DNA of 64,000 bases from Mobula hypostoma (taxonomy: Eukaryota), in the NCBI RefSeq assembly GCF_963921235.1, contig NC_086097.1:76386001-76450000 (forward strand), read 5' to 3'. Below, piece after piece: positions 9,411-49,387 of this stretch. The stretch's first letter is position 1. Each line of letters opens with the position of its first letter. The notes beneath the pieces are model-generated. The model did not search any database. It was given only the letters and a program-made list of their open reading frames with translations, and was not told the origin of the DNA. The position numbers and the translations under genes are program-made.

Positions 9411-12014
9411 TCTTGATCCAATTTAAAACCTTATACAGTGGATTGGTTTCATCTGTTGAATACGAAATATACATTTGGAGTTATGGAATGAAATCCCACA
9501 TGCAGTGTTATATTGCTCTTCATACTTCAACTTCACAATGCTATTAAAATGCAGATGTTATTATTATGTAATTTTAGATGTTTGAGTTTTATTACTTTTT
9601 TGTTGTTGGCATATTACTCAGTAAAAATTCATGGTTTTAACAGACTTACCAGGTTATTTCTGAAGGATACAAAATGGTTATCTGTCAACATATCAACTAA
9701 AAGATCTAAAAATTCTTGAAAAGCCAAAAAGCTACAGATACTGAAAATCTGAAATAAAAACCAAAAATATGCTGGAAATGCCCAGCACACCAGGCAGTAT
9801 CTATGAAAAGAGAATCAGTATTAGCATTTCAACTCAATGACACTTCATTGGATCTGACTTCTTTTTTCCAGGTGCTGGAAACTGAAGTGAAGGCTATTTT
9901 TTCAATTATGCATTGAAAGGTTCATTCAATCATCAGAAGCAAAACATCTGTATCTGTTTTCCACATTTATGGCCATACTTATGTTCGAAAGTATCAGATG
10001 TACTTGATTTTCAATCCTTTTAACTTCTGAAAAAAAAATATTCAGCATATTGTGAGGTTAGGAGGGGCATCTAAGGGTGTATATAGCAGAAGACCATGTG
10101 ACATAGGAGCAGAAGTAGGCCATTTGGCCCATCGAGTCTGCTCCTCCATTCAATAATGGCTGATTCTTTTTTCCCCTCCTCAGCCCCACTCTCTGGCCTT
10201 CTCCCCTTTCGATGCCGTGTCCTATCAAGCTCGGCCCTAAATGCACCCAACAATCTGGCCTTCACAGCTGCCTGTGGTAATAAATTCCACAAATTCACCT
10301 CCCTCTGGCTAAAGAAGTTTCTCTGCATCTCTGTTTTAAATGGATACCCCTTTATCCTGAGGTTGTGCTCTCCCACCATGGGAAACATCCTTTCCACATC
10401 TACTCTGCCCAGGCCTTTCAACATTCAAAAGGTTTGAATAAGATTCCCCCCATCCTTCTAAATTCCAGCGAGTATAGACCCAGAACTATCAAACATTCCT
10501 TGTATGATAACCCTTTCATTCCTGGAATCATCCTTGTGAATCTCCTCTGGACCCTCTCCAATGCCAGCACATCTTTTCTTAGATGAGGACCCCAAAACTG
10601 TTCACAATACTCCAGGTGATGCCTCACGAGTGCCTTATAAAGCCTCAGCATCACATCCCTGCTCTGTATTCCAGACCTTTTGAAATGAATGCTAACATTG
10701 CATTTGCCTTCTTTACCACTGATTCAACCTGCAAGTTAACCTTTAGGGTGTTCTGCACAAGGATTCTTAAGTCCCTTTGCATCTCGTATTTTTGGATTTT
10801 CTCCATTTAGAAAATTGTCTGTATATTTATTTCTTTACCAAAGTGCATAACCCTGCATTTCCAACATTGTATTTAATTTGCCATCTTCTTGCCCACTCTC
10901 CTAATCTGTCTAAATCCTTCTGCAGCCTACCTGTTTTCTCAATGCTACCTGCCCCTTCACCAATCTTCGTATCATCTGCAAATTTGGCAACAGAATAATC
11001 TATTCCATCATCTAAATCATTGATGTAGAGCATAACAAAATGCGGACCCAACACTGACCCCTGCGGAAGATCAATAGTCATTGGCAGCCAACCAGACACA
11101 GGTCCTTTTATTCCCACCCGCTGCCTCCTACCAATCAGTTAATTCTCCAACCATGCCGGTAACTTTCCTGTAATACCATGGGCTCTTAACTTGGTAAGCA
11201 GCTTCATGTGTGGCACCTTGTCAAAGGCCTTCTGAAAGTCCAAATATACAACATCTGCTACATTCCCCTTAACTATCCTACTTGTAATCTCCTCAAATAA
11301 TTCCAACAGGTTTGTCAGGCAAGATTTTCTCTCAAGGAAACCACGCTGATTTTGTCCTATCTTGTCCTGTGTCACCAAGTACTCCATAACCTCATCCTTA
11401 GCAATTGACTCCAACATCTTCCCACCTCTGAGGTCAAGCTAAGTAACTGGTCTATAATTTCCTTTCTGTTGCCTTCCTCCTTTCTTGAAGAGTGGAGTGA
11501 CATTTGTAATTTTCCAGACCTCAGGCACCATGCCAGAATCCAATGATTTTTGAAAAGTCATTTCTAATGTCTCCACAATTTCTACTGCTACGTCTTTCAG
11601 AAACCTAGGGTGCAGTTCATCTGGTCTGGGTGACTTGTGTATCCTTAGGTCTTACAGCTTTTTGAGCACCTTCTCCCTTGTAATAGTAACTGCACCCACT
11701 TCTCTTCCCTCACACCCTTCAACATCTGGCACACTGCTGGTGTCTTCCACAGTGAAAACGGATGGAAGTACTCATTTAGTTCATCTGCCATTATTATTTC
11801 TCTGGCCTCATTTTCTTGCGGGGCTATATCCACTCACATTTCTCTTTTATTTTTTACATACTTGAAAAAGCTCTTACTAGCCACTTTAATATTGCCTGCT
11901 AGCTTGCTTTCATATTTCATCTTTTCCCTCTTAATGATTATTTTATCTGCTCTCGGTAGGTATTTTAAAAGCCTCCCAATCATCTATTTTCCCGCTAATT
12001 TTTGCTTTGTTGTG

Positions 12015-13173
12015 TGTAACACTACTGCTATGCTGTAGGTATTTCATTTTTAGCAGATCTGTAAGAGCAATCTATTCTATTTTCAGCCTGTTTGGGTTTG
12101 AGCTGAGAAAAGGGGCCTTGTTGTTCAATTTCAGAATGTGGTGTCAGCCATTCAGGATGGTGGAACTGAGAAGAGGTTCCAGAGAGTTTTTAGATAGATA
12201 GATAGATAGATAGACATACTTTATTGATCCCGAGGGAAATTGGGTTTCGTTGCACCAAATGAGAATAGAGTATAAATATAACAATATAAAATCATGAATA
12301 ATTAAATAATAATATGTAAATTATGCCAGTTGGAAATGAGTCCAGGACCAGCCTATTGGCTCAGGGTGTCTGATCCTCCAAGGGAGGAGTTGTAAAGTTT
12401 GATGGCCACAGGCAGGAATGACTTCCTAAGACGCTCCGTGTTGCATCTCGGTGGAATGAGTATCTGGCTGAATGTACTCCTGTGCCCAACCAGTACATTA
12501 TGTAGTGGATGGGAGACATTGTCCGAGATGGCATTCAACTTGGACAGCATCCTCTTTTCAGACACCACCGTCAGAGAGGGACGCAGGTGAGGGACACTGG
12601 TTGGGTCAAGGATGTTGTTGGCGGTAGCTGGGAGAAGACAGGAGGAAAGATGGTTGAGGAAGCCGTCCCTGTTGCACAAGGTGATTTCTGCAGATGAATG
12701 GCTTCAAGGAGGAAGAACCAATACTCCCATGGGAGAGCCCATTTGTTTTGAGTGACATTCAGAAGGTGCAGTGTGTATATTGAAAACAATGGCTTCTGGG
12801 AGATTGGTGGCCCACCATACTTATGTGACTGCTTAAATATAATGGGCCCTTTTTGTTTTATCCTTTCCTTTCTTTAATAACTGATTGCTTAAGTTAACAT
12901 TCTGAAATATGCTTCTCTATAAACATATGCAGTGTACAATCTGTTATTTTTTGCTGACAGTCAATTGCCAGCGGCAGTAAATCACACAGCATTCAAACTG
13001 GGTTTTAGGTGGGAGAGACATCCCAACCTCACGGACTAGGTGGGACCAAAGTAGTATACACCCTAGACATAAGAAGCCTGAGAAAGGTCGGTTTCTTGCC
13101 ATGAGCCCAGTGGCTGTTAGCGAGGGGCTAACAGGCTGCATTTCCAGAGACACCCAGTAAATACAGGGTTTCA
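12015..13173. mobile_element. Solo-LTR-like insertion within the CR1
   Basis: TGTAAC...GTTTCA termini. The CR1 reads contiguously across it (tttgctttgttg | tattccctctc). No clean TSD was seen. Confidence 0.55.
12191..12578 (-). mobile_element. Young 5'-truncated Rex/Babar LINE with (TCTA)n tail
   Basis: ORF end SLTVVSEKRMLSKL...KSFLPVAIKLYNSSLGGSDTLSQ is nearly identical to the 14.5 kb and 46 kb copies. (TAGA)n lies at 12191-12214. Confidence 0.88.
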
Positions 13174-14544
13174 TATTCCCTCTCTTACACCTTCACATTA
13201 GCTTTGACTTCCTTTGACAGCCATGGTTGTACTATTTTGTCATTTGAGTATTTCTTTGTTTTTGGAATACACCTATCCTGCACCTTTCTTATTTTCCCCA
13301 GAAACTCACGCCATTGCTGCTCTGCTGTCATCCTTGCCAGCATCTCCTTCCAATTTACTTTAGCCAACTCCTCTCTCATACCACTGTAATTTCTTTTACT
13401 CCACTGAAATACTGCTGTGTCAGACTTTACTTTCTCCCTATCAAGTTTCAAGTTGAATTCAATCATATTGTGATCACTGCCTCCTAAAGATTCTTTTACC
13501 TTAAACTCCAAGATTACCTCCGCTTCTTTACATAACACCCAATCCAGTAGAGCTGATCCCCTAGTAGGCTCAACGACAAAATGCTCCAAAAAGCTATCTC
13601 ATAGACATTCAACAATTTCACTCTTGAGATCCATTGCCAACCTGATTTTCCCCAATCGACCTGCATGTTGCAATCTCCCATTACTATCATAACGTTGTCC
13701 TTTTGACACACCTTTTCTGTCTCCTGTTGTATTCTGTGGTACACATCCCAGCTCCTGTTGGGAGGCCTGTGTATAACTGCCATCAGAGTCCTTTTACCTT
13801 TGCAGTTCTTTAACTTAACACACAAGGATTCAACATCTTCTGATCCTATGTCACATCTTTCTTCTGATTTGATGTCATTGTTTACCAGCAGAGCCATGCC
13901 ACCCCCTCTGCCTACCTTCCTATCCTTCTGATACAATGTGTAACCTTGGACATTCAGCTCCCAACTACAACCATCCTTCAGCCACGATTCAGTGATGGCC
14001 ACAACATTAAACCTGACAATCTGTAATAGTACAGGAAGATCATCCACCTTATTTCTTATACTCTGTGCATTTGAGATATGACACTTTGAGTACTGTATTT
14101 GCTACCCTTTTTGATTCTGCATCCCTAATGCTCTGGTACTCACCCTACCGACTGCAAATTTGTCATATCATCAGGCTGCCTGCGTGCTATCTTTGCTTTT
14201 TTACCATCCGTCCTATCCTGAGTCCCTTCACTCAGGTTCCCACCTCCTGCAACACAGACTAATATGTCGACAGTTTCTGTCTGCTGACTGCAGAAGTACT
14301 TTGAGAATGAATTTAACAATTCAACTCTTTCTAGAGACAATAGATCATCTTTGCAGAAAGAGCATGAAAAAAGCTGTCTGTAGGTAACATTTTACATGTT
14401 AAGGTTATTACCTTGAAACATTAACTCACAAAGACACAAGAAAGTAGGAGCAAGAAGGCCACCATGCCCCTCAAGCTTGACCCACCATTCAACATGATCA
14501 TACCTAATCTATGCTGGCCTCAACTCCTCTTCTGCACTTGTTCT

Positions 14545-23820: not shown

Positions 23821-24811
23821 GTCTAAACTGTGTCTGGAAGCTCTTCAGTCAGTGTTCTTGTCACCAATGAAACAAAAACTGCACATTTAATGAAAGGCTG
23901 GCTGAGAAAATATTCAGAAGTCTGCATAAACAAAATATATCATCTGAACAAATTAATAAAAAGCAGTATCCACTTAACACTAACTGAAAATTTACTGTAA
24001 TTAGGCCACTTCAAAAAGTCAAAAAAATTGAAAACTTGACAGTGTTGGATACCAAATAGATATTAAGCTTTAGAGATGAAAGACTGATGGGCATAATCTA
24101 TAGCTTTAATTCCTGGCCAGCCTTTCAGGTTTTAAAATACAATCAATGTCAATACAAATAGGAAATTATCATCAATTACCTGAAGGTATGTGCTGTACCT
24201 AGGATAAGGAAATCGAAGCTGCTTCCAAGATTTCTTAGCACTTACTGATTTAAATACGACTAATCACTGTTTTTATAACCATATTTTAACCTTGCAGATA
24301 AAAAATTACACAGCACAATAATTAGTGCTTTGTAAGTTCCTTAGTACTATGTTGAGAAGGTGAAGTGAAAAGCAAAAACATTGAATTATAATTATTGGAT
24401 TAGACATTTTGAGTTAGTCTGAGTTTAAAATGTTGGGATATAAACTTGTACAAAACAAGAAATGTTACCAATGTTAAATCACAGATATCAAAGATAGAAT
24501 GCACAAACAAACACTGTTCATGACTGCTGGCAGTTTAAAATCGAAGCAATATGCATTTTTCAGTTTAAGTTTATGTACTGTATCATTGTATTATTTCTTT
24601 GTAATCAAATGGTTTGTCAACAGAGAATCCTTAAGGAAAAAAAATGGATTTCTTTCAGTGTTACAAAAGTCAGATTCTGCCAAAAGCTACCCATTGATTG
24701 ATATAACTATTTACTCCTTGCTTATATTCAGTATAGTTAATGAAGAAACTTAAAATATATGTATTAAGTACAAGTTTATATGTCAACACAACTGGCCTTT
24801 ATTTTCAGTAC

Positions 24812-25566
24812 CTGGAATCCTTTAGCTGAATCCTTGTCCAATATAAAGGCCTCATTGGAAGACGCGGTTCAATTACGGGTTTCCTTATGTGTCTACTTTT
24901 CTTCAAGTTGAAATTCGTGGCATTTGGATTTCCAAATGGGAATGGTGGAGGAGGAGGTGGTGGTGGTCCAGAGCCTGGGAGAGGAGGTGGAGGTGGAGGT
25001 GGAGGAGGTGGTGGTGGTCCAGAGCCTGGGAGTGGAGGTGGAGGTGGTACCCCAGAATCTGGGAGAGGAGGTGGAGGTGGAGGTGGAGGTGGAGGTGGAG
25101 GTGGAGGTGGAGCGGGTACCCCAGAATCTGGGAGTGGAGGTGGAGGTGGTACTCCAGAATCTGGGAGATGTGTTGTCAAACCTTGAGACTGAGATTCGGA
25201 GACTTGTGAGGATGAGGACAATGAAGCTTCCTCATTTGTCACCTGTAGAGAGTGAGGCGACTGGCCATTCAAGTTCAAGGAAGCAAGGTTCAATTTTCCT
25301 GGAACAGTTAGACTGCTTCTGGGTGTCCGGTTATCTTCTTGGTTTAATTGTATGAATGATTCTCTGTCAGTCTGAATGCAAACATTGCGAAACGTCTTTG
25401 GCACAAATTCATCTGCAGTGGAAACAGAAACATCTCTTGTTTCAGATTTTCCCTCCTTTGTTTTATTTTCCAAGTTATTTTTCAATTGTGCAATGGATTC
25501 TTCATGCTTAGATATTGCTTCAGCGTGTTCCCCACGGACATGGAAAAGTTTCAACTCAAATTCTTG
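24812..25566 (-). CDS. FMN1: Formin-1 coding exon: coiled-coil tail, FH1 polyproline region and start of FH2 (755 nt, phase 0 to phase 2)
   Basis: Translates QEFELKLFHVRGEH...KTFRNVCIQTDRESF...polyPro...RKPVIEPRLPMRPLYWTRIQLKDS. This matches recalled FMN1 motifs (KTFRNVCVQTDRETF; PMKPLYWTRIQ). Acceptor is ttttctgtttcccaacag and donor is AG|gtactg. The first 13 aa of the 266-aa ORF are intronic. Confidence 0.93.
24942..25168 (-). repeat. FH1-encoding (CCA/CCT)n repeat; five LP[D/G]SG(V)-Pn units
   Basis: Plus strand shows (GGAGGT)n runs separated by ccagaatctggga / ccagagcctggga spacers. Confidence 0.9.
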
Positions 25567-26979
25567 CTGTTGGGAAACAGAAAACAAATTAATAACATTG
25601 TACACTTATCGGGGCATATAATTATGATTTTGGCCTTTATTTTGACATTAGCTACTTAAGTTTTACAAGCACTTTCAGATTTCACACCATATTTTGCTCC
25701 AGTGTAACAAGTTTTGCCCATTGTTCTCACTGTGCTGAGTCACAAGTGTTCTGGGATGAACCATTCATAATATACCATGGGCAGTATTCCTGATAATTTG
25801 ATGAAAAGTCCAGGCCTACAGTATTGCTACAGCAACTATAGCATCTGAATAGGAAGAACCTTAATAAAAGAAGTTAGAGAGAACCATTTTGTTACACAAC
25901 TCCAAAGATTTGGGCAAAAAAAAGTCCTGGACTTTATAAAAGGAAGCATAGAGTACAGGACAAGAAAGTTATGATGAGATATAAAACTGTGCATTGTACA
26001 ACAACTGGAATGCTGTCTCCAAGACTAGACTAAGCACTTTAGAAGGATGTGAAGGCTTTGGATAGCATGCAGAAACTTTCACCACGACTTCCATGACCAT
26101 GTACTCCCTGTCTCCAGTAATAAAGCCCAGCCTGGCAAGATCTTGCCTGGCAGCATCAATGAATTATTCACATTTATCCACAGATCTCCATGTCTTTGTA
26201 CTTCTTTTAGAATTTAGATTTTTAGACCCTCAAGTTTATATTGCTTCTTCTCCATCAATAGATAATATTTGGTTTTTTTATCTGCCTATTAGACTACCGT
26301 TCCAATATCTCTTTGAAGTATATTACCATTTACTACCCATCCCAATTTTGGGCCACTTGCATTCTCTCTCTCTCTGTCTCTTTTCCTCTTCTGAACATTC
26401 TATAATTATCCTGGTTCTAACTTGTGTTGACAACTTAGCACTTATCATCTTCATATTTTCTGTGTTGCTTTACCCTCTATTGCGTTAATCAACAAATGAT
26501 CTCTTAATTAATCTTCTTCATATGAATATAGCTAGATGAAAGCTGAAACATCACCACCTTGAAGATATTCTGTTGTGTAATTACAGTTTTGCCTTAGAAG
26601 TTTTGATTCCATTTCGTTTGAGCCAGCTCTGTTCCCTTCCCGTTCAAATAGTCACTTCTCCAGTTGACAATTTTTAAACTTCGAATGGTTTCTGTATTTT
26701 TTTCCATACATATCTAAACTTCATGATCTGTTTCCTAGAAAGACTCTTATTGCTAGTTCTCAACCTGTCCTGGTACATTTTCCAAATCCAAGTCCAACAA
26801 GTCATCTTAGCCATTGGGTCAGGTAAAGAACATTGCCTTGAGCACACTTCATAAACTCTTACACCATACTGCCCCTTAGAATCAGTGTTTCTGATAGTTC
26901 TTCCCCATTATTACTACTCCATGACCTTTGTACAACTCTGTAATTTGCCTTCAAAATCATCTCTCAATATCCTTTCAAA

Positions 26980-27595: not shown

Positions 27596-27895
27596 AACAT
27601 TGGTTGGCAGCCTGTAGAATAGTCTCAGTCATGTAACTATGGCCCTGCTGTTCATTAATATAATCTGAGTTATTATAGGAAATCATCTCTCTTCGGCACT
27701 GCAATGCTTCCTTTAATCAATACTGTCACTTCCTTTCTTTTATCCCTTCCCTATTTTTCTGAAAAACATGAATAATTAGAAACCATCCCTGCCTTTTATT
27801 TAAGGCAAGTCTCCATTATTGTCATGAATTCAAAACTCCACATGATTAATTTAGCTTGCAGATCACCAATCTTTTATGCCTACATAGGGGTATAT

Positions 27896-28061
27896 AGGGT
27901 GTCAGGGAAGGGTAGCACCTCTGGTGGGGGAACAGGTGGTTAGTCCACCTTTGGTTCCCATCTGGCACTCAACTCTCACCTGTGGCTCCTCGTAGCTGTT
28001 TGCATGCGACAGCAGCCACACCCCAGGCAACGGGTTCGACAAGCCAGCTAAACCAGCTGAG
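27896..28061 (+). ncRNA. HDV-like ribozyme motif (partly mutated copy)
   Basis: P1 gggtgt/acaccc, P2 ctcacctg/cagctgag, P3 ggc/gcc, L3 tcctcgt, J4/2 gctaa. Confidence 0.55.
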
Positions 28062-28430
28062 GGTAGCCGATGGGTCTCAAACCCTCTGTGAGATAGGGAA
28101 TTGTCTATCCCAGCATGTGAAGACAGACTCTGGTGGATTGAGCGTACAAGACCAATGGAAGGTCCAACTGTCAGGAAGGCGGTCTTTGCAAGTGTCGTGG
28201 AACGTGTAGAGCACGACAAGACACAGAAGTTGTCCTGGTCATCCACTGCGCCTCGGCCCATCTCCAGCCGTCTTGACTTTTGTCATGCCACTGGATCCAG
28301 ATGGGAATTGGGGAGAGAGAATGAGGCTGACACTGCGCAACTCTCCCTCACTTAAATCCAAATCACGCGCTAGTCTCGATACCATCACCATGGTGTCGAG
28401 GTCTTCATCGACGTCAACGATGGATGAACA
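27896..28430 (+). mobile_element. Non-autonomous retroelement (RTE-like 5' region) with HDV-like ribozyme fold
   Basis: Homologous to 36600-36960 on the opposite strand, with nested pseudoknot pairings at the 5' end. Confidence 0.6.
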
Positions 28431-31400
28431 ACATATCTATATACATGTCCTGGTAAATCAAGCTCAGACTTTTTTTTCCCCATTCTTTCATAATTTGGTC
28501 CTGCCTGAAAATATTCTGGTGCTTTCATTTCAAATCTTCTTTTTCCACCTTCATATATTCTCTTTTTTGTTTCTGTAGCCAACCTCGCCACACAACCTTG
28601 CTTACGAATCTGCAAGGACATTGTCTTGGTTCTGTGAGGTGTAATCTATTTAGTTTCTATCGGTTCCACCAAACCCCAACAGAACAGGTCAAATTCATCC
28701 GAAGTCCTTCGTCCAGCCACACATTTGTCTTCACTAACCTCTAAGCTAACGGGTGCATTGGATGATCTGGAGATTGTCATCTTCAACATTGTGTGTCTTA
28801 ATCTCTTTCTAAACTCACTAAAATATGCATGAGAGTCTCAAGCTTGTTATACTGCCCATGTCACCATTACAATATGGACTGTGACCTCTGGCTGTTTACT
28901 GCCCTCCAATCACCACCCTCCAGAATGTTCTGCAGCTGCAAGAGAGGCAGTATGCCATCTAGGTATTACCCCTACAACCACAAAAATATCATCCTGCTAA
29001 GTCTAATCAAAAAAATCATGAATAATTATACTCTCTTCACCTTTTTTACTCCATTGAGCCACCCAAGATACCATGGCTTTGGGTCTTGCTGCATTTGTCA
29101 GAGAAAGCCTCTCCCTCATTGACACATGGCTGACAGGAGATCAAAATATCTTCAATGATCTCATTAAGTATTTGCCTACTCTTTTTTTTGCCAATCTGGC
29201 TAACAGGCATTCCCAATCTTACTGTAGTCTCTTAAGTAGTTGGGTGATCACCATGAAACATACTTTTTAATAAACCATCAGCTTCTTGGATGGCAGCTAC
29301 TGCTCACACTGTAGAACTCAGATCTTGGGTTCCAAGATAGTCAAAGCATTCTGCAGTTCCCACATTGCGTGGGATAGGCATTCTACAGATTTTAAGGTGC
29401 CATGCCATGTCTCTTTTTATTAGATTAATTCAATTTGCTGAAAGAAATTATTAAAATGCTTACTTCCCTTAATGATTCTTTTAAATTTTCAGCTCTTTGT
29501 ATAAACACAATGCTTGTTTAAATTCACAGGACTTATGATTCACCAACTTCTCTTAAACTTACCAGCCTTGGTCTCATGTGTTCCTGTTAAACTTAATCAG
29601 GCTCCAATCTCTTGCTCCTTTTACCCTCACAGTCATTTGCACACACTTTACTTGTAATTCAGCAAAATTTAAATTTATATGCTTTTAATTGCACATGTCG
29701 TATGCAACATTCAGTTTTGTAATTTGGCTTTCCAGCATTTGAATGACAACAATACATGAGGTTAAAGTTATTTCCTAAGCAAAAACTATGCAAATAAATT
29801 AATGAGGTACACACATTATAAAAAGTCATAGACAAGTAGTGGAAATAATAAAACAAAGTCTAATAGAATTCTGGCCTTTGTGTCTGGAGATACAGGGGGA
29901 ACAATGGGAGGGTGTGGGACAGAAGTAAACTGCAGCATAACTTCAAACTTTTGTTTCTTGTCATCCAGATAATAGTTACTGGCATTCAATTTGTTTTTAA
30001 ATGAGTTAATTTTCATGACATTCATACCCTAGTCATGCATCCCCATGCCTATAAACTTGAACTTCAACTTGAAGGCAATTCTGCATTAAAGGCAAATTAC
30101 AGGCAATTCTGCATTTAATTTCAACTCTCACACTGCTATTCCAACATTACAAGCATATATCATCACTGAAAATTGAGATATTGAAGATGATATAAATCAG
30201 AAATTAAAAACAGAAAAAGGTGGAAGTATTCACAACTCAGACAGCTTCTGTGAAGAAACAAACATTACTCTGCTCTGCTAATATTCCCAGCATTTCCTCC
30301 TTTTGTTTACAGCTAAAGAGAACTTGTTTCTTATGACCAAAGTGAATGGCATCCAGAGGGCACAGATTTAATATGAATCAAAGGCAACACACGGAGCTTT
30401 CATTAAACTTGACTAGTATTTATAGAGCAAGAGCAGAGAAGTAGGATTAATTGAATGACTTCAGTATTATAAGAATTGCAAGAAGCCTGATAGACGGAGT
30501 GCATTCCAGTGTATTAGATCACTCTTTGACATTTATTAAGGAATTTTTACGCATGACTACTTCACTGTCCAATTATTTGAGAAAGTGTGGGCTTAATTTG
30601 CAGAGTTCACTAAAAGAATGGACCTCGAAGTCAGCATACGCATTTTAGTTACAAGGTAATTTTAAGCATGCATCAAAATAATTACCTCCTGTATTAAAGA
30701 TTCATTTTTCACAAAATACTGAGATGAGTCACTTATTTCCATGCTGTTCACACTGTGGTTTACCGAAAATTACTTTTCAAAAAATTACAGGAACCAGAAG
30801 CAATTCATCTTTTTTCAACATCAAGAAACATCCCCACATAGGCTTCACCAGTAATCCTTCTGACAGCAATTATATCTCCCGCACTGGCTTCAATTAAAAA
30901 TATCAGTAATGTTGTAAAATGATCTCCTGGTTATTTAAATAATATTTAATTTGTAGCTTATATCATTAGAATTTTAATAATAAAAATCTGTGGGACATGA
31001 CTGAAGCGGAGAACTGTAACATGGCGCATAAACGTACTGCGCCACTGCATGGCAGCTGGCAGATCTACAGCTATAGACATTAAAAACTCATATTTATTCA
31101 GCTTATTAAAGGTGGCACTAAATGATCCCTTCAGATGTCTTATAGGTAGAGAAACCAAGCGGTATTCCTGCACAATATCTCTGCTCTTGGCAAATTATTG
31201 TCAGGAAAAAACAGAGCAGTTTCTCTGATGGGAAAGTGATGCAGGAACAATGTTCAATGAAATGCACGGCTTCTCCCAATTGATTCACAGAATAAGTACA
31301 ATGTTATATAAGCAAAAAGCAATGTCACAGAATTATTTTGTAAAAGTTTGAGAAGCAAAGTGAAATGGCAAAATATATTTATCTTATTTAATAATCAGTG

Positions 31401-36331: not shown

Positions 36332-36595
36332 GGCACAGCTTTAAGGTGCTTGGTAGAAGGTACAGGGGGATGTCAGTGGTAAGTTTTTCCACACAGAGAG
36401 TACTGGGTGTGTGGAATGCACTGCTGGCGACAGTGGTGGAGACAGATACAATAGGGTCTTTTAAGAGACTCTAAGTTAGGTACATGGCGCTTAGAAAAAT
36501 AGAAGGCTATGCTGTGGAGAAATTTTAGGCAGTTTCTAGAGTAGGTTACATGGTCGGCACAACATTGTGGGCCGAAGGGACGTAATGTGCTGTGA
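36332..36595 (+). mobile_element. CR1 3' end nested in the DNA transposon
   Basis: Reverse complement of the 8760-9030 CR1 tail (acaacattgtgggccgaaggg). Confidence 0.8.
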
Positions 36596-36599
36596 GTAG

Positions 36600-36960
36600 A
36601 TATCACAAACTGGGGTCTTCCTTGGTTGCAGTGGTTGACCATTACTTCTTCTGTGCCCTTCGCTCTCCACAAAGCTTTGCAGAACCACCTTCTTGGCTGT
36701 TGGATCTCACCGTTGATCTTATCCATCCAGTTTGTCAGAGCTGATTTCACATGTTAGGACAGGTTTGCCCGTATTCCACCTGGTTATGAGGCCTGCCAGC
36801 CACCCTCACCTGGTTTAGCCTGCCTGTCGAAGCAGTGTACCGTATTCTGGCCGCTGTTGCATGCAAACAGCTAGTTGGAGCCACAGGTGAGTGAGCTGCC
36901 CCAGAATGGACACACCGAGCCCTTCACCAGAGGTGCTACTCTTCCCTGGACACCCCATGC
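36600..36960 (-). mobile_element. Second RTE-like 5' element copy with HDV-like fold (36805-36956)
   Basis: Shares ggggtgt..agggaag.gtagcacctctggtg, ctcacctgtggctcc, agctgtttgcatgc.acagc.gcca and gctaaaccag.tgaggg with the 27.9 kb copy. Confidence 0.6.
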
Positions 36961-38440
36961 ACGGCAGCATACCCTGGATTAATTCCTCCATTGATAACAA
37001 TTGGGAACTAATACACTGTTTTATTGTACTGTCGTAGCATTGGAGGTGTTCTAATTTGTTGTGCTTTTCATTTAAATATATAAAATTTGTTACTCAGTTA
37101 AACAGTAGTTTGCCTTTTTCATACTTTTTTAACTATTTCCATGAAACTTTGGCTAATTGGAGCAGCTGCTTAACTGTGCTAGTCCATTTGTGTCCCAATT
37201 AACTTGATTCTACTGTATTTAGAAATTTCTTGAGGCGAGAAATTTTATCTTGATTGGCAATGCCAATAAGCACTGGAATAGAAGTTATTGTGTCATGGAG
37301 AACTGCTATATTGCAATATCATATTCACAGACGGAGGAGAAATTTCTCGACTTTAAGGTCAGGGGGCTAGAAATTTGTATGAATAATTGGAAGTCAATTA
37401 TATTCCTCTACAGAAAATTGACTTAACAAGGAGAGGAACAGTTTATGCACGTTTCTGGGAATAATGTTGCCATCTATAGGAAAATTCAAATCCATTTTGA
37501 TGGGATTTTCTTGTCCAATAGAAATTCCTTCCCCCTCCATGTGACAATCTCCCAAATGACAGCAATTCTAGAGCAATAAGCAAATTTCACTTGTTGTGAA
37601 TTTTTCAACCCCACCGCTCTAAAATGTCACAGTTCTTATTTATTTATAGGAATAAAAATGTAAGCATTCAGTCAACCAAATATTCTGGCGATGCGTTCAC
37701 AAATAAAAATGAACAAGAAAAGATGAATGATGCTTCAGTGATTCACTGCTAAACACTACAAGCTGGTTAAGTTCCATGTTGAGACCACAGAGAAAAATAG
37801 ATTTTAAAGTAGGTTTCTAAAACTCCAAAAAGTATTTTCATGAAGAAAAATATCTTGACCATTTTCTGCTTCATTTGGCTCTCTATGCATTGTGTGCTAT
37901 AACTGTATTTCTGTCTGACAAAAACAAGAGCCAAGATTACTAAAAAAGAGCAAAGTGGCAAATTTGTGGAAAATAGTTGCTAACACCATATGTGACACCA
38001 ATCCCTTAGCTTTCATGTTCAATTCATAGATTTTGTTTGTTTTAAGTCAATTGTTTACATGAGTAGAAGGCATTAGAAATAACCGATCCAAATTTCCCTT
38101 AACTCCTGTTTAGGTATATGTTTCATGGAGGAGGAACTAACTTCTGGGATGAGAGGGTTGTCCTATCAGGAGAGGCTAGACAGTTTAGATCTGTACTCCT
38201 CTGAGTTTATTTGGGTGACTTTATCGAATAGACAAGATTCTAAGTGAGCAGACGTTGTGATGTTTTCACTAATATTAGAGCCATAAACAAGGAAATGTTG
38301 CTACAAAGTAAGTGTCAGTTATTTGAAACTGAGTTACATATACATCACTTTCTCAGACAGTAGTAAATCTCTAATTATCTACCTTCAAGGATGGTGGAGG
38401 CTAAATCATTGAATATATTTATGTTAGAGGTAGTGAAATA

Positions 38441-45724: not shown

Positions 45725-48700
45725 TAGAGCTGCTAGGGAAGGTTTAAACTAATTTGGCAGGGGGATGGGAACCGGAATGACAGAGCGGAGGAGGGGGAAA
45801 ACAGAAATAAATCTCAGATAGTGAGCAGTAAAGATGTCAGGAAGGACAGGCAGGGGATGAGGCAAATTTGCAGCCATTGGGATGAGCTGCAGTGCAATCA
45901 AAGCAAATAGTACCAAATACTGGACTTAGGGTGTTATACTTAAATGCACGCAGCATAAGGAATAAGGTGAATGATCTTGTCATACAGCTACAGATTGGTA
46001 GGTATTCCTGAGGAGACTGAGGTCCTTTAACATCTGCCGGACGATGCTGAGGATGTTCTATGAGTCTGTGGTGGCCAGTGCTATCATGTTTGCTGTTGTG
46101 TGCTGGGGCAGCAGGCTGAGGGTAGCAGACACCAACAGAATCAACAAACTCATTCGTAAGGCCAGTGATGTTGTGGGGATGGAACTGGACTCTCTGACAG
46201 TGGTGTCTGAAAAGAGGATGCTGTCCAAGTTGAATGCCATCTTGGACCATGTCTCCCATTCACTACGTAATGTACTGGCTGGGCACAGGAGTACATTCAG
46301 CCAGAGACTTATTCCACCGAGATGCAACACAGAGCGTCATAGGAAGTCATTCCTGCCTGTGGCCATCAAACTTTACAACTCCTCCCTTGGAGGGTCAGAC
46401 ACCCTGAGCCAATAGGCGGGTCAGACACCCTGAGCCAACAGGCGGGTCCTGGACTTATTTCCTGGCATAATTTACATATTACTATTTAACTATTTATGGT
46501 TTTATTACTATTTATTAGTTATGGTGCAACTGTAACGAAAACCAATTTCCCCCGGGATCAATAAAGTATGACTATGACTATGACTATTGTGCCCATCACT
46601 GAGACATGGCTATAGGATGCATGTCTCTGGGAGCTGAATGTCCAAGGATACACGGTGTATCGGAAGGATAGGCAGTTAGGCAGAGGGGGTGGCGTGGCTC
46701 TATTGGTAAGAAATGATATTAAATCATTAGAAAGAGGTGACATAGGATCGGAAGGTGCAGAATCTTTATGGGTTGAGCTAACAAAATGCAGGGGTAAAGG
46801 GACCCTGATGGCAGTTATACATAGGCCTCCTAACAGCTGCCGTGATGTGGACTACAAATTACAACTGGAAATAGAAAAGGCTTGTCAGAAGGGCAGTGTT
46901 ATGATAATTGTGGGGGATTTTAACATGCAAGTGGATTGGGAAAATCAGGTCGGCACTGGATCTCAAGAGAGAGAATCTGTAGAATGTCTATGAGATGGCT
47001 TTTCAGAACAGCTTTTGTTGAGCCCACTAGGAGATCGGCTGTACTGGACTGAGTATTGTGTAATGAACTAGAGATGATTAGAGAGATTGAGGTGAAGGAA
47101 TCCTCAGGAGGCAGTGATCATAACATGACTGAGTTCACTGTGAAATTTGAAAATGAGAAGCTGAAATCCAATCTGTCAGTATTTCAGTGGAGTAAAGGAA
47201 ATTACAGTGGCCTGAGAGAGGAACTGGCCAAAGTTGACTGGAAAGGGACACTAGCGGGAAGGACAGCAGAGCAGCAGAGGCTGGAGTTTATGCGAGAAGT
47301 GGGGAAGGTGCAAGACAGGTATATTCCAAAAAAAAAAGAAATTTTTGAATGGAAAAGGGATGTAACCGTGGCTGACAAGAGAAGTCAAAGCCAGAGTTAA
47401 AGCAAAAGAGAGGGCATACAAGGAAGCAAAAATTACTGGGAAGACAGAGGATTGGGAAGTTTTTAAAAGCTTGCAAAAAGAAACTAAGAAGGTCATTAAG
47501 AGGGTAAAGATGAGCTATGAAAGGAAGCTAGCAAATAATATCAAAGAGGATACTAAAAGCTTTTTGAAGTATATAAAGAGTAAAAAACAGGTGAGAGTAG
47601 ATATAGGACTGATAGAAAATGATGCTGGAGTAATTGTAATGGGAGATAAGGAGATGGCAGAGAAACAGAATGAGTATTTTGCATCAGTCTTCACTGAGGA
47701 AGACATCAACAGTATCCCGGACACTCAAGGGTGTCAGGAAAGAGAAGTGTGCGCAGTCACAATTACGGCAGAGAAAGTACTCAGGAAGCTGAATAGTCTA
47801 AAGGTAGATAAATCTCCCGGACCAGATGGTATGCACCCTCGTGTTCTGAAGGAAGTAGCTGTGGAGATTGCGGAGGCATTAGCAATAATCTTTCAAAAGT
47901 CAAAAGATTCTGGCATGGTTCCGGAGGACTGGAAGATTGCAAATGTCACTCCGCTATTTAAGAAGGGGGCAAGGAAGCAAAAGGGAAATTATAGACCTGT
48001 TAGCTTGACATCGGTGGTTGGGAAGTTGTTGGAGTCAATTGTCAAGGGTGAGGTTACAGAGTACCTGGAGGCATATGACAAGATAAGCAGAACTCAGCAT
48101 GGTTTCCTTAAAGGAAAATCCTGCCTGACAAACCTATTGCAATTTTTTAAGGATATTACAAGTAGGCTAGACAAGGGAGGTGCAGTGGATATTGTGTATT
48201 TGGATTTTCAGAAGGCCTTTGACAAGGTGCCGCACATGAGGCTGCTAAACAAGATAACAGCCCATGGAATTACGGGAAAGTTACATACGTGGATGAGCGT
48301 TGGCTGATTGGCAGGAAACAGAGAGTGGGAATGAAGGGATCCCATTCTGATTGGCTGCTGGTTACCAGTGGTGTTCCACAGGGGTCGGTGTTGGGGTCGC
48401 TCCTTTTTACGTTGTACATCAACGATTTGGATTATGGAATAGATGGCTTTGTAGCTAAGTTTGCTGATGATACCAAGATAGGTGGAGGGGCCGGTAGTGC
48501 TGAGGAAACAGAGAGTCTGCAGAGAGACTTGATAGATTGGGAGAATGGGCAAAGAAGTGGCAAATGAAATACAATGTTGGAAAGTGTATGGTTATGCACT
48601 TTGGTAGAAGAAATAAACAGGCAAGACTATTATTTAAATGGGGAGAGAATTCAAAGTTCTGAGATGCAACAGGACTTGGGAGTCCTCGTACAGGATACCC

Positions 48701-49387
48701 TTAAAGTTAACCTCCAGGTTGAGTTGGTGGTGAAGAAGGCGAATGCAACGTTGGCATTCATTTCTAGAGGAATAGAGTATAGGAGCAGGGATGTGATGTT
48801 GAGGCTCTATAAGGCACTGGTAAGACCTCAATTGGAGTACTGTGTGCAGTTTTGGGCTCGTTATTTAATTTAATGCGCTGACGTTGGAGAGGGTTCAGAG
48901 AAGATTCACTAGAATGATTCCAGGAATGAGAGGGTTAACATATGATGAACATTTGCCCACTCTTGGATTGTACTCCTTGGAGTTTAGAAGAATGAGGGGG
49001 GACCTCATAGAAACATTTCGAATGTTGAAAGGCATGGGCAGAATGGATGCGGCAAAGTTGTTTCCCATGGCGGGGGAGTCTAGTACGAGAGAGCATGACT
49101 TAAGGATTGAAGGGCGCCCATTCAGAACAGAAATGCGAAGAAGTTTTTTCAGCCAGAGGGTGGTGAACCTGTGGAATTTGTTGCCACGGGCAGCAGTGGA
49201 GGTCAAGTCATTGGGTGTATTTAAGGCAGAGATTGATAGGTATCTGAGTAGCCAGGGCATCAAAGGTTATGGTGAGAAGGCGGGTGAGTGGGACTAAATG
49301 GGAGAATGGATCAGCTCATGATAGAATGGTGGAGCAGACTCGATGGGCCGAATGGCTGACTTTTGCTCCTTTGTCTTATGGTCTTAG
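45725..49387 (+). mobile_element. CR1 LINE: end of ORF1 plus essentially full ORF2 with few disablements; Rex insertion inside
   Basis: ORF1 end RAAREGLN*, then YLNARSIRNK, GGGVALLV, GGSDHN, the 278-aa RT piece, SGVPQGSVLG and KFADDTK. Tail is tcttatggtctta. Confidence 0.92.
46006..46587 (+). mobile_element. Young 5'-truncated Rex/Babar LINE with (TATGAC)n tail nested in the CR1 endonuclease region
   Basis: 123-aa ORF nearly identical to 14.6-15.0 kb. It interrupts CR1 QIGRY|..V.ITETW. Confidence 0.9.

Follow-up and report, generated by a model that had tools for sequence, protein, structure and literature searches.

A putative HDV-like ribozyme with a hairpin inserted in L3 heads a family of RTE-type retroelement derivatives

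Loop L3 forms part of the active site of the HDV ribozyme, and search descriptors and designs treat its length as fixed. HDV-like ribozymes head the non-LTR retrotransposons R2, RTE, Baggins and L1Tc (PMC6765202, PMC3774820); in the published passages available to us, they free the element from its co-transcript and may help translation (PMC6765202). A site in the window (the whole stretch of DNA analysed here, 64,000 nucleotides long) was originally predicted to adopt such a fold with an additional hairpin in L3. The locus raises the question of whether an HDV-like ribozyme can hold a helix in this loop and what such a helix might do. The reading that we favour, and consider probable, is that the site is the front end of an RTE derivative carrying an HDV-like ribozyme with a predicted cut just before position 27887, and that the L3 hairpin likely forms a six-pair pseudoknot with a downstream hexamer.

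Positions 27887 to 28433 (plus strand) constitute one copy of a 547-bp repeat headed by the HDV-like fold. We searched an animal genome of 3.5 Gb for this repeat, designated family A, and obtained 5698 candidates, the best 39 of which, apart from the copy in the window, were 88–92% identical to it. A 27-mer from the element head had 1757 exact matches, corresponding to at least 1757 copies, and a 34-mer across the hairpin, P3' and P1' had 968 (controls, 0 in both cases). Among 30 copies, the 3' end was recognised in 25, and most carried a target-site duplication of 6–13 bp, a few of these automatic calls being chance. Family A copies end in CAA-type tails. The tail in the window is short and overlaps the second unit (28431–28435) of a probable 5-bp target-site duplication that begins at 27882–27886 (plus strand), which is short enough to have arisen by chance. 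The family and its boundaries are established. Two other loci were unusual: one copy (L082) is rearranged, with an inverted ribozyme piece directly upstream, and elsewhere (L093) two copies stand in tandem at a distance of 576 bp. All or part of the stretch was also contained in 20 sequencing-run rows from 12 studies and several organisms, RNA rows accounting for small shares only. Contigs of one read set (X12) included both L3 variants, and among 40 of 64 differences listed for these contigs the hairpin changes were all of the CpG type.

The origin of the repeat is established by a full-length parent LINE (locus L435). Element bases 1–505 correspond to its 5' UTR (85% identity) and bases 504–547 to its 3' end (86%). 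The parent has the same head and is 3.3 kb long, with a single open frame of 1109 amino acids between the UTRs that contains endonuclease (APE) and reverse-transcriptase (RT) domains; both parts of the element can be traced to this one APE+RT LINE. We take the motifs of this frame to be RTE-type, and the putative RTE assignment is based on them and on the layout. A genome pattern for the start of the parent's open frame had no match. Judged from these alignments, the copy in the window is a bipartite, internally deleted and non-coding LINE derivative, probably of RTE type. Its LINE-derived 5' and 3' parts join at 28373–28401 (plus strand), where the two sides are complementary; in the LINE they lie 3.5 kb apart. 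The 5' and 3' UTRs of the parent are able to pair (–17.8 kcal/mol) exactly at the joining point of the short element. In four family A copies (L072, L079, L100 and L108), a tRNA-like SINE sits inside the loop of the junction helix and gives a composite subfamily.

We searched the window with a descriptor that combined P1, P2, P3 and P4, the core bases of L3 and J4/2 and, within L3, a hairpin no shorter than 5 bp. It returned one site, namely that originally described, and one match in 30 shuffled windows. A covariance model, whose training set includes the described site, gave 101 bits both to this site and to another copy in the window (core 36801–36898, minus strand), the next best hit reaching 12.5 bits. 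Plain minimum-free-energy folding of the described site gave no signal (z = –0.5). The second copy, at 36590–36975 (minus strand), is older, is 3'-truncated, belongs to family B and has the same ribozyme and hairpin; a different P1 considered for it was rejected, as the sequence upstream belongs to a flanking repeat. Two copies, about 75–85% alike, of another RT-bearing LINE with tandem-repeat tails also lie in the window at 10071–14101 (minus strand) and 45837–49385 (plus strand), the latter with an RVT_1 domain at 47366–48304.

At the described site, P2, P3, the head of L3, the hairpin, P1', P4, J4/2 and P2' follow one another in canonical order at the places given by the original prediction. 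On the plus strand, the P2 5' strand occupies 27973–27983; the P3 5' strand (27984–27986) and the L3 head (27987–27993) lie within 27984–27994; P3' (28015–28017), P1' (28018–28024) and P1.1' lie within 28015–28026; P4 spans 28031–28046; and J4/2, with the candidate catalytic C 28048, is followed by P2' (28052–28063) within 28047–28063, which includes a one-base bulge. We compared this arrangement across six related sequence sets: A, B (older than A), E (an old full-length LINE), F, G and the more distant C. The family presents the nested double pseudoknot of P1, P2, P3, P1.1 and P4 in canonical order, and P1.1 is broken in the copy in the window. Nucleotides are named here by HDV position. The equivalents of G1, U20, C21/C22, G25, G38/G39 (the GG of P1.1), C75 and A78 are kept in the majority sequences of A, B, E, F and G, and L3 positions 23–24 vary among these families. 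Compensatory changes between families are established in P1 (pair 6), P4 and P2, where one pair takes all four Watson-Crick forms (C-G, U-A, G-C or A-U). In other words, of the three helices in which the original prediction called for covariation, P1 and P2 covary, whereas P3 is invariant and, like P1.1, silent on this point. The parent LINE, the 5' ends of the copies and the helix covariation all support the view that an RTE-type element begins with an HDV-like ribozyme.

The position of P1 required correction. Its 5' strand had been placed at 27897–27902 and the cut before ggggtgt; the true strand is the terminal seven-base unit at 27887–27893 (plus strand), nine bases upstream, and the predicted cut accordingly moves nine bases, to just 5' of G 27887. 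The terminal unit was present at this distance from the 27897 strand in 28 of 30 unbiased copies, selected with an internal pattern in the order of the genome, and conservation began at its first G (25/30 copies, compared with at most 18/30 at upstream positions). In family G, pair 6 of P1 has changed from G-C to A-U, with A in the terminal unit in 20/20 copies and T in P1' in 27/30, and the second unit is unable to pair with P1'; we identified the terminal unit as the P1 strand because of this swap and of the second unit's failure to pair. Positions 27897–27905 instead pair with 27962–27970 as helix P1.2, which closes a J1/2 domain (27897–27970, plus strand). G1, formerly reported as substituted, is therefore intact at 27887, and the G>A change at 27896 affects another base. 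Once P1 is corrected, the 5' ends of the elements coincide with it: the same 28 of 30 family A copies begin there, as do 15 of 25 anchored family E copies. A T precedes G1 in 16/28 copies of A (L061–L090), 13/15 of E and 10/20 of G, and in some copies it lies outside the target-site duplication.

The families differ in the length of L3, which is 28 nt in A, B and E, 7 nt in F and G, and 8 nt in C. Because 28 nt falls outside the range of 7–8 nt, the A/B/E ribozyme is a variant rather than a standard member of the HDV-like class. The hairpin responsible (27995–28013, plus strand) has 6 bp, including a U-G pair, and a 7-nt loop with the hexamer 28002–28007; it is fixed in A, B and E and absent in F, G and C. 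Sister families with a 7-nt L3 keep the same P3' directly before P1', which bears out the claim that the hairpin was grafted at the 3' side of L3. The insertion point can be placed between L3 position 26 and P3', since P3' abuts P1' in every family. A, B and E are 72–79% identical to one another, and all bases of the catalytic core are kept. The hairpin stem is paired in 93.6% of cells and unchanged among these three families; it therefore shows no covariation at the family level. We also considered that the first three bases of the hairpin might act as the other strand of P3 and close a normal 8-nt L3, leaving the extra sequence between P3 and P1'. This pairing could form in A, B and E (with one G-U), yet it is worth –1.2 kcal/mol compared with –6.5 kcal/mol for the arrangement described above, and it would disregard the P3' that the sister families keep before P1'; we find it hardly credible.

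A tree of 26 endonuclease rows (27 were tried and one was dropped as too short) left A, E and F unresolved, and C and G fell outside them under midpoint rooting, which makes a short L3 the probable ancestral state. Further insert-bearing families were sought with two loose genome patterns, and the matches listed (100 of 131 for one pattern and 56 for the other) comprised only A/B-type copies, two family E copies and chance matches. A 600-bp element ('family D', L324–L348) was rejected as an insert-bearing relative and is unrelated; it has about that length, begins sharply at its 5' end, is represented by 429 candidates and contains several hairpins, and by eye it could not be fitted to the HDV fold. 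A pattern search of viral contigs gave 120 matches, and none of the 80 examined passed the descriptor. Metagenomes yielded one contig with the same head (L311), again with a 28-nt L3 and hairpin. This contig carries an animal-like copy in which a change in P2 is compensated and the 5' unit is duplicated, and it is probably host DNA. In RTE family C (L150:1400–1513, L141, L143, L148 and L155), a canonical HDV-like core lies within the element, about 200 bases from the apparent 5' end rather than at it. It had been argued that fixed-length descriptors would miss the variant; this is true by construction. Rfam had no match at the described site, but its silence lends the argument no support and says nothing about the insert, because canonical sister ribozymes (in L477, L448 and L150) are also missed by Rfam.

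The loop of the inserted hairpin is complementary to a hexamer at 28113–28118 (plus strand), about 50 bases 3' of P2' and about 100 bases beyond the loop. We searched for loop and hexamer with the two centre positions as wildcards. The loop and hexamer centres were AT and AT in family A (43 and 43 of 44 scored copies; 50 examined), AT and AT in B (23 and 23 of 27; 30 examined), TA and TA in E (15 and 15 of 19; 30 examined), and AC and GT in F (16 and 15 of 16; 17 examined). Two pairs are thus swapped on both sides in E relative to A, and a combination of the A loop with the E hexamer, or of the E loop with the A hexamer, would form only 4/6 pairs. This coupled change is established, and the hexamer is the predicted partner of the loop. 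In five sequence sets of about 480 nt each, the loop had exactly one 6/6 partner, always at the aligned site, although one such partner per 480 nt is about the chance expectation for a single family. The six pairs were 93.6% formed in 26 real copies, compared with 6–42% when slid, a figure that counts one inherited event many times. Of 500 shuffles, which ignore relatedness, 214 reached the observed number of swapped pairs. The covariation comprises few independent events, namely one double swap (E) and one separate arrangement (F). A and B have the same base in 329 columns; E departs from them in 46 of these, with eight adjacent doubles, two of which are the loop centre and the hexamer centre, with pairing kept. 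Counting double changes within the loop yielded six matches, which alone is uninformative. A small hairpin lies directly 5' of the hexamer (28096–28111, plus strand; 2/4 counted pairs swapped between families). A local hairpin as partner for the hexamer was rejected, since it fits B, partly fits E and fails in A.

In family F, a hairpin of six pairs and a 7-nt loop lies outside the ribozyme, on its 3' side. Within the 170 bases that separate P2 from the F hexamer, GCGUGU, the loop of this hairpin, GCACGC, is the only 6/6 complement of the hexamer. Because this loop is neither a palindrome nor a repeat of the hexamer, F favours pairing over a dimer signal or a repeated protein site. The F hairpin is equivalent to the A/B/E insert in its arrangement and may be homologous to it. 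F-clade LINEs in which the ribozyme is partly or wholly lost kept the hairpin and hexamer in 15 of 22 loci examined. Since E swaps both sides and F has its own hairpin and hexamer that survive loss of the ribozyme, the insert probably supplies half of a 5'-UTR pseudoknot that is separate from the ribozyme but interlocked with it. The original description of a grafted domain holds for the insert, but the hairpin is no free appendage, as its loop covaries with a hexamer outside the predicted interval of 27896–28061.

Young F-clade RTE LINEs (L398, L404, L407, L413 and L415–L431) have had the ribozyme head partly or wholly replaced by captured GC-rich sequence. The captured sequence contains a glyoxalase-family frame (Pfam PF13669, E = 2e-11), which we take to be MCEE-like, and is probably a borrowed promoter or 5' exon. 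Several of these LINEs have open frames of 1000 amino acids.

Other explanations of the hairpin have to be weighed against this pairing. One is that an active HDV-like ribozyme merely tolerates a functionless bulge, the match between loop and hexamer being due to chance or shared origin. Position 26–27 of L3 faces solvent, which would suit such a bulge, as would the stem without covariation and the chance expectation of a single 6/6 match per family. However, the double changes in E's loop and hexamer keep the pairing and F repeats the match with other letters, and we regard this explanation as unlikely. Another is that the loop of A, B and E, which is self-complementary (both versions are six-base palindromes), could drive loop-to-loop RNA dimers by analogy with the CPEB3 ribozyme, whose dimers are described as forming through the palindrome of L3 (10.1101/2022.09.22.508989). 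A dimer of this kind needs no change in the hexamer, yet the hexamer changes, and the F loop is not palindromic; it therefore seems very improbable. Pairing of the loop with the hexamer might also take place between two molecules.

In nearest-neighbour folding, pairing of the loop with L3, or of U20 with the base after the hairpin (an extended P3), was preferred to or rivalled the expected structure. The predicted probability of the hairpin was 0.42 in A, 0.90 in B and 0.11 in E (0.11–0.93 overall) and rose to about 1 when the loop was blocked, in a test that is partly circular. These values weakly suggest that the hexamer may help the core to fold. The competing folds, which consume L3, could also indicate that the insert disabled catalysis and that the fold survives as a 5'-end structure for protection or protein binding, the 5' ends arising otherwise. 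The spread of F-clade LINEs without a ribozyme and the report that the HDV fold aids R2 template function as a structure (PMC11331408, as far as the passages available state) agree with this view. It is quite improbable, given that the core bases are kept in A, B and E and that copies begin at G1 in the proportions given above.

Returning to the interlocked pseudoknot, we propose the following course. As retrotransposon biology suggests, intact copies would be transcribed from outside promoters; the heads of intact A, B and E copies would then cut themselves before G1, and the RTE protein would copy the cut RNA, by way of the 3' end inherited from the LINE. The hairpin and hexamer would form a 5'-UTR module with its own role, which might be RNA stability, protein binding or translation start, and which in A, B and E would be threaded through the ribozyme. 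With the hexamer bound to it, the loop would no longer mispair with L3, so that full activity may need the downstream 55 bases. A stronger version, in which a mobile UTR module in the catalytic loop makes a triple-pseudoknot ribozyme and acts as a folding switch, with cutting only after the transcribed hexamer has captured the loop, is possible but doubtful.

The copy in the window is itself damaged. The substitutions formerly reported in P1.1 (the first G to A at 28025) and P2 (mismatch at 28057) are real, and in addition A 27892 is mismatched with C in P1, P4 has lost two of its pairs (4/6 left) and J1/2 has a 17-nt deletion. G1, C75, the loop and the hexamer are intact, and P1.1 has lost one of its two pairs (G38). 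Even conservative P1.1 changes in HDV are reported to cost about tenfold in the passages available (PMC1874588), and because of this the copy is probably inactive; the damage in P1.1, P2 and P4 supports the earlier suggestion that it may be so. Ten of the 30 unbiased family A copies passed all core checks. The copy had also been described as antisense to FMN1. It is antisense to a formin-type exon at 24805–25605 (minus strand), in which an FH1 poly-proline tract with an 11-residue proline-rich repeat runs into an FH2-like start, but the name finds less support: Pfam and PDB returned nothing, and the Atlas gave only an FH2 lead (0.78). The element points away from this minus-strand gene and would not cut its pre-mRNA.

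The fold with a hairpin in L3 is real and represents a structural variant of the HDV-like kind. A natural family with a helix in L3 shows where the core can be extended, and its sisters without the helix can serve directly for comparison. The linked changes of loop and hexamer suggest that RTE 5' UTRs contain an RNA element which persists when the ribozyme is lost, and this makes the role of these UTRs testable. Constructs that end at P2, which is the usual design, may under-report activity.

Variation reported for HDV-like ribozymes concerns J1/2, P4, J1/4 and the spacing of L3, in the available passages of these papers (PMC3774820, PMC4870747, PMC4908430, PMC5786205, PMC6326823, PMC6765202, PMC9901934) and of further ones (PMC4035085, PMC10879173, PMC1874588, PMC3414825, PMC11331408, bioRxiv 2022.09.22.508989). 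A full-text search, covering main text and with 'L3' not searchable alone, returned neither a helix inserted in L3 nor a pseudoknot between a loop and a hexamer in the UTRs of RTE elements. As far as these accounts go, family A shares with the ribozymes of non-LTR elements the order and pairing of P1, P2, P3, P1.1 and P4, the bases U20/G25, C75 and A78, and G1 as the first base of the element; in contrast, its L3 has 28 nt, including the 19-nt hairpin, instead of 7–8 nt, and its loop is tied to a hexamer. The ribozyme drz-Agam-2-1, in which a P1.2 domain in J1/2 speeds cleavage, resembles family A in its short linkers, long J1/2 helix (P1.2) and extended P2; its peripheral domain, as described, is in J1/2 only, with nothing in L3 (PMC4908430). 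Like the bipartite RTE elements and R2 SIDEs of the cited passages (PMC5786205, PMC3414825), family A consists of the parent's 5' UTR and extreme 3' end only, is about 0.55 kb long, retains the ribozyme, and has no ORF and no tRNA head. Unlike R2 SIDEs it is not site-specific, and it differs from these bipartite elements in that its halves join in a helix that the distant UTRs of the parent can also form. Finally, the CPEB3 ribozyme likewise has a self-complementary sequence associated with L3 (10.1101/2022.09.22.508989); there, according to the portion available, the palindrome makes up L3 and is in competition with P1.1, whereas in family A it lies in the added hairpin and covaries with a partner in cis.
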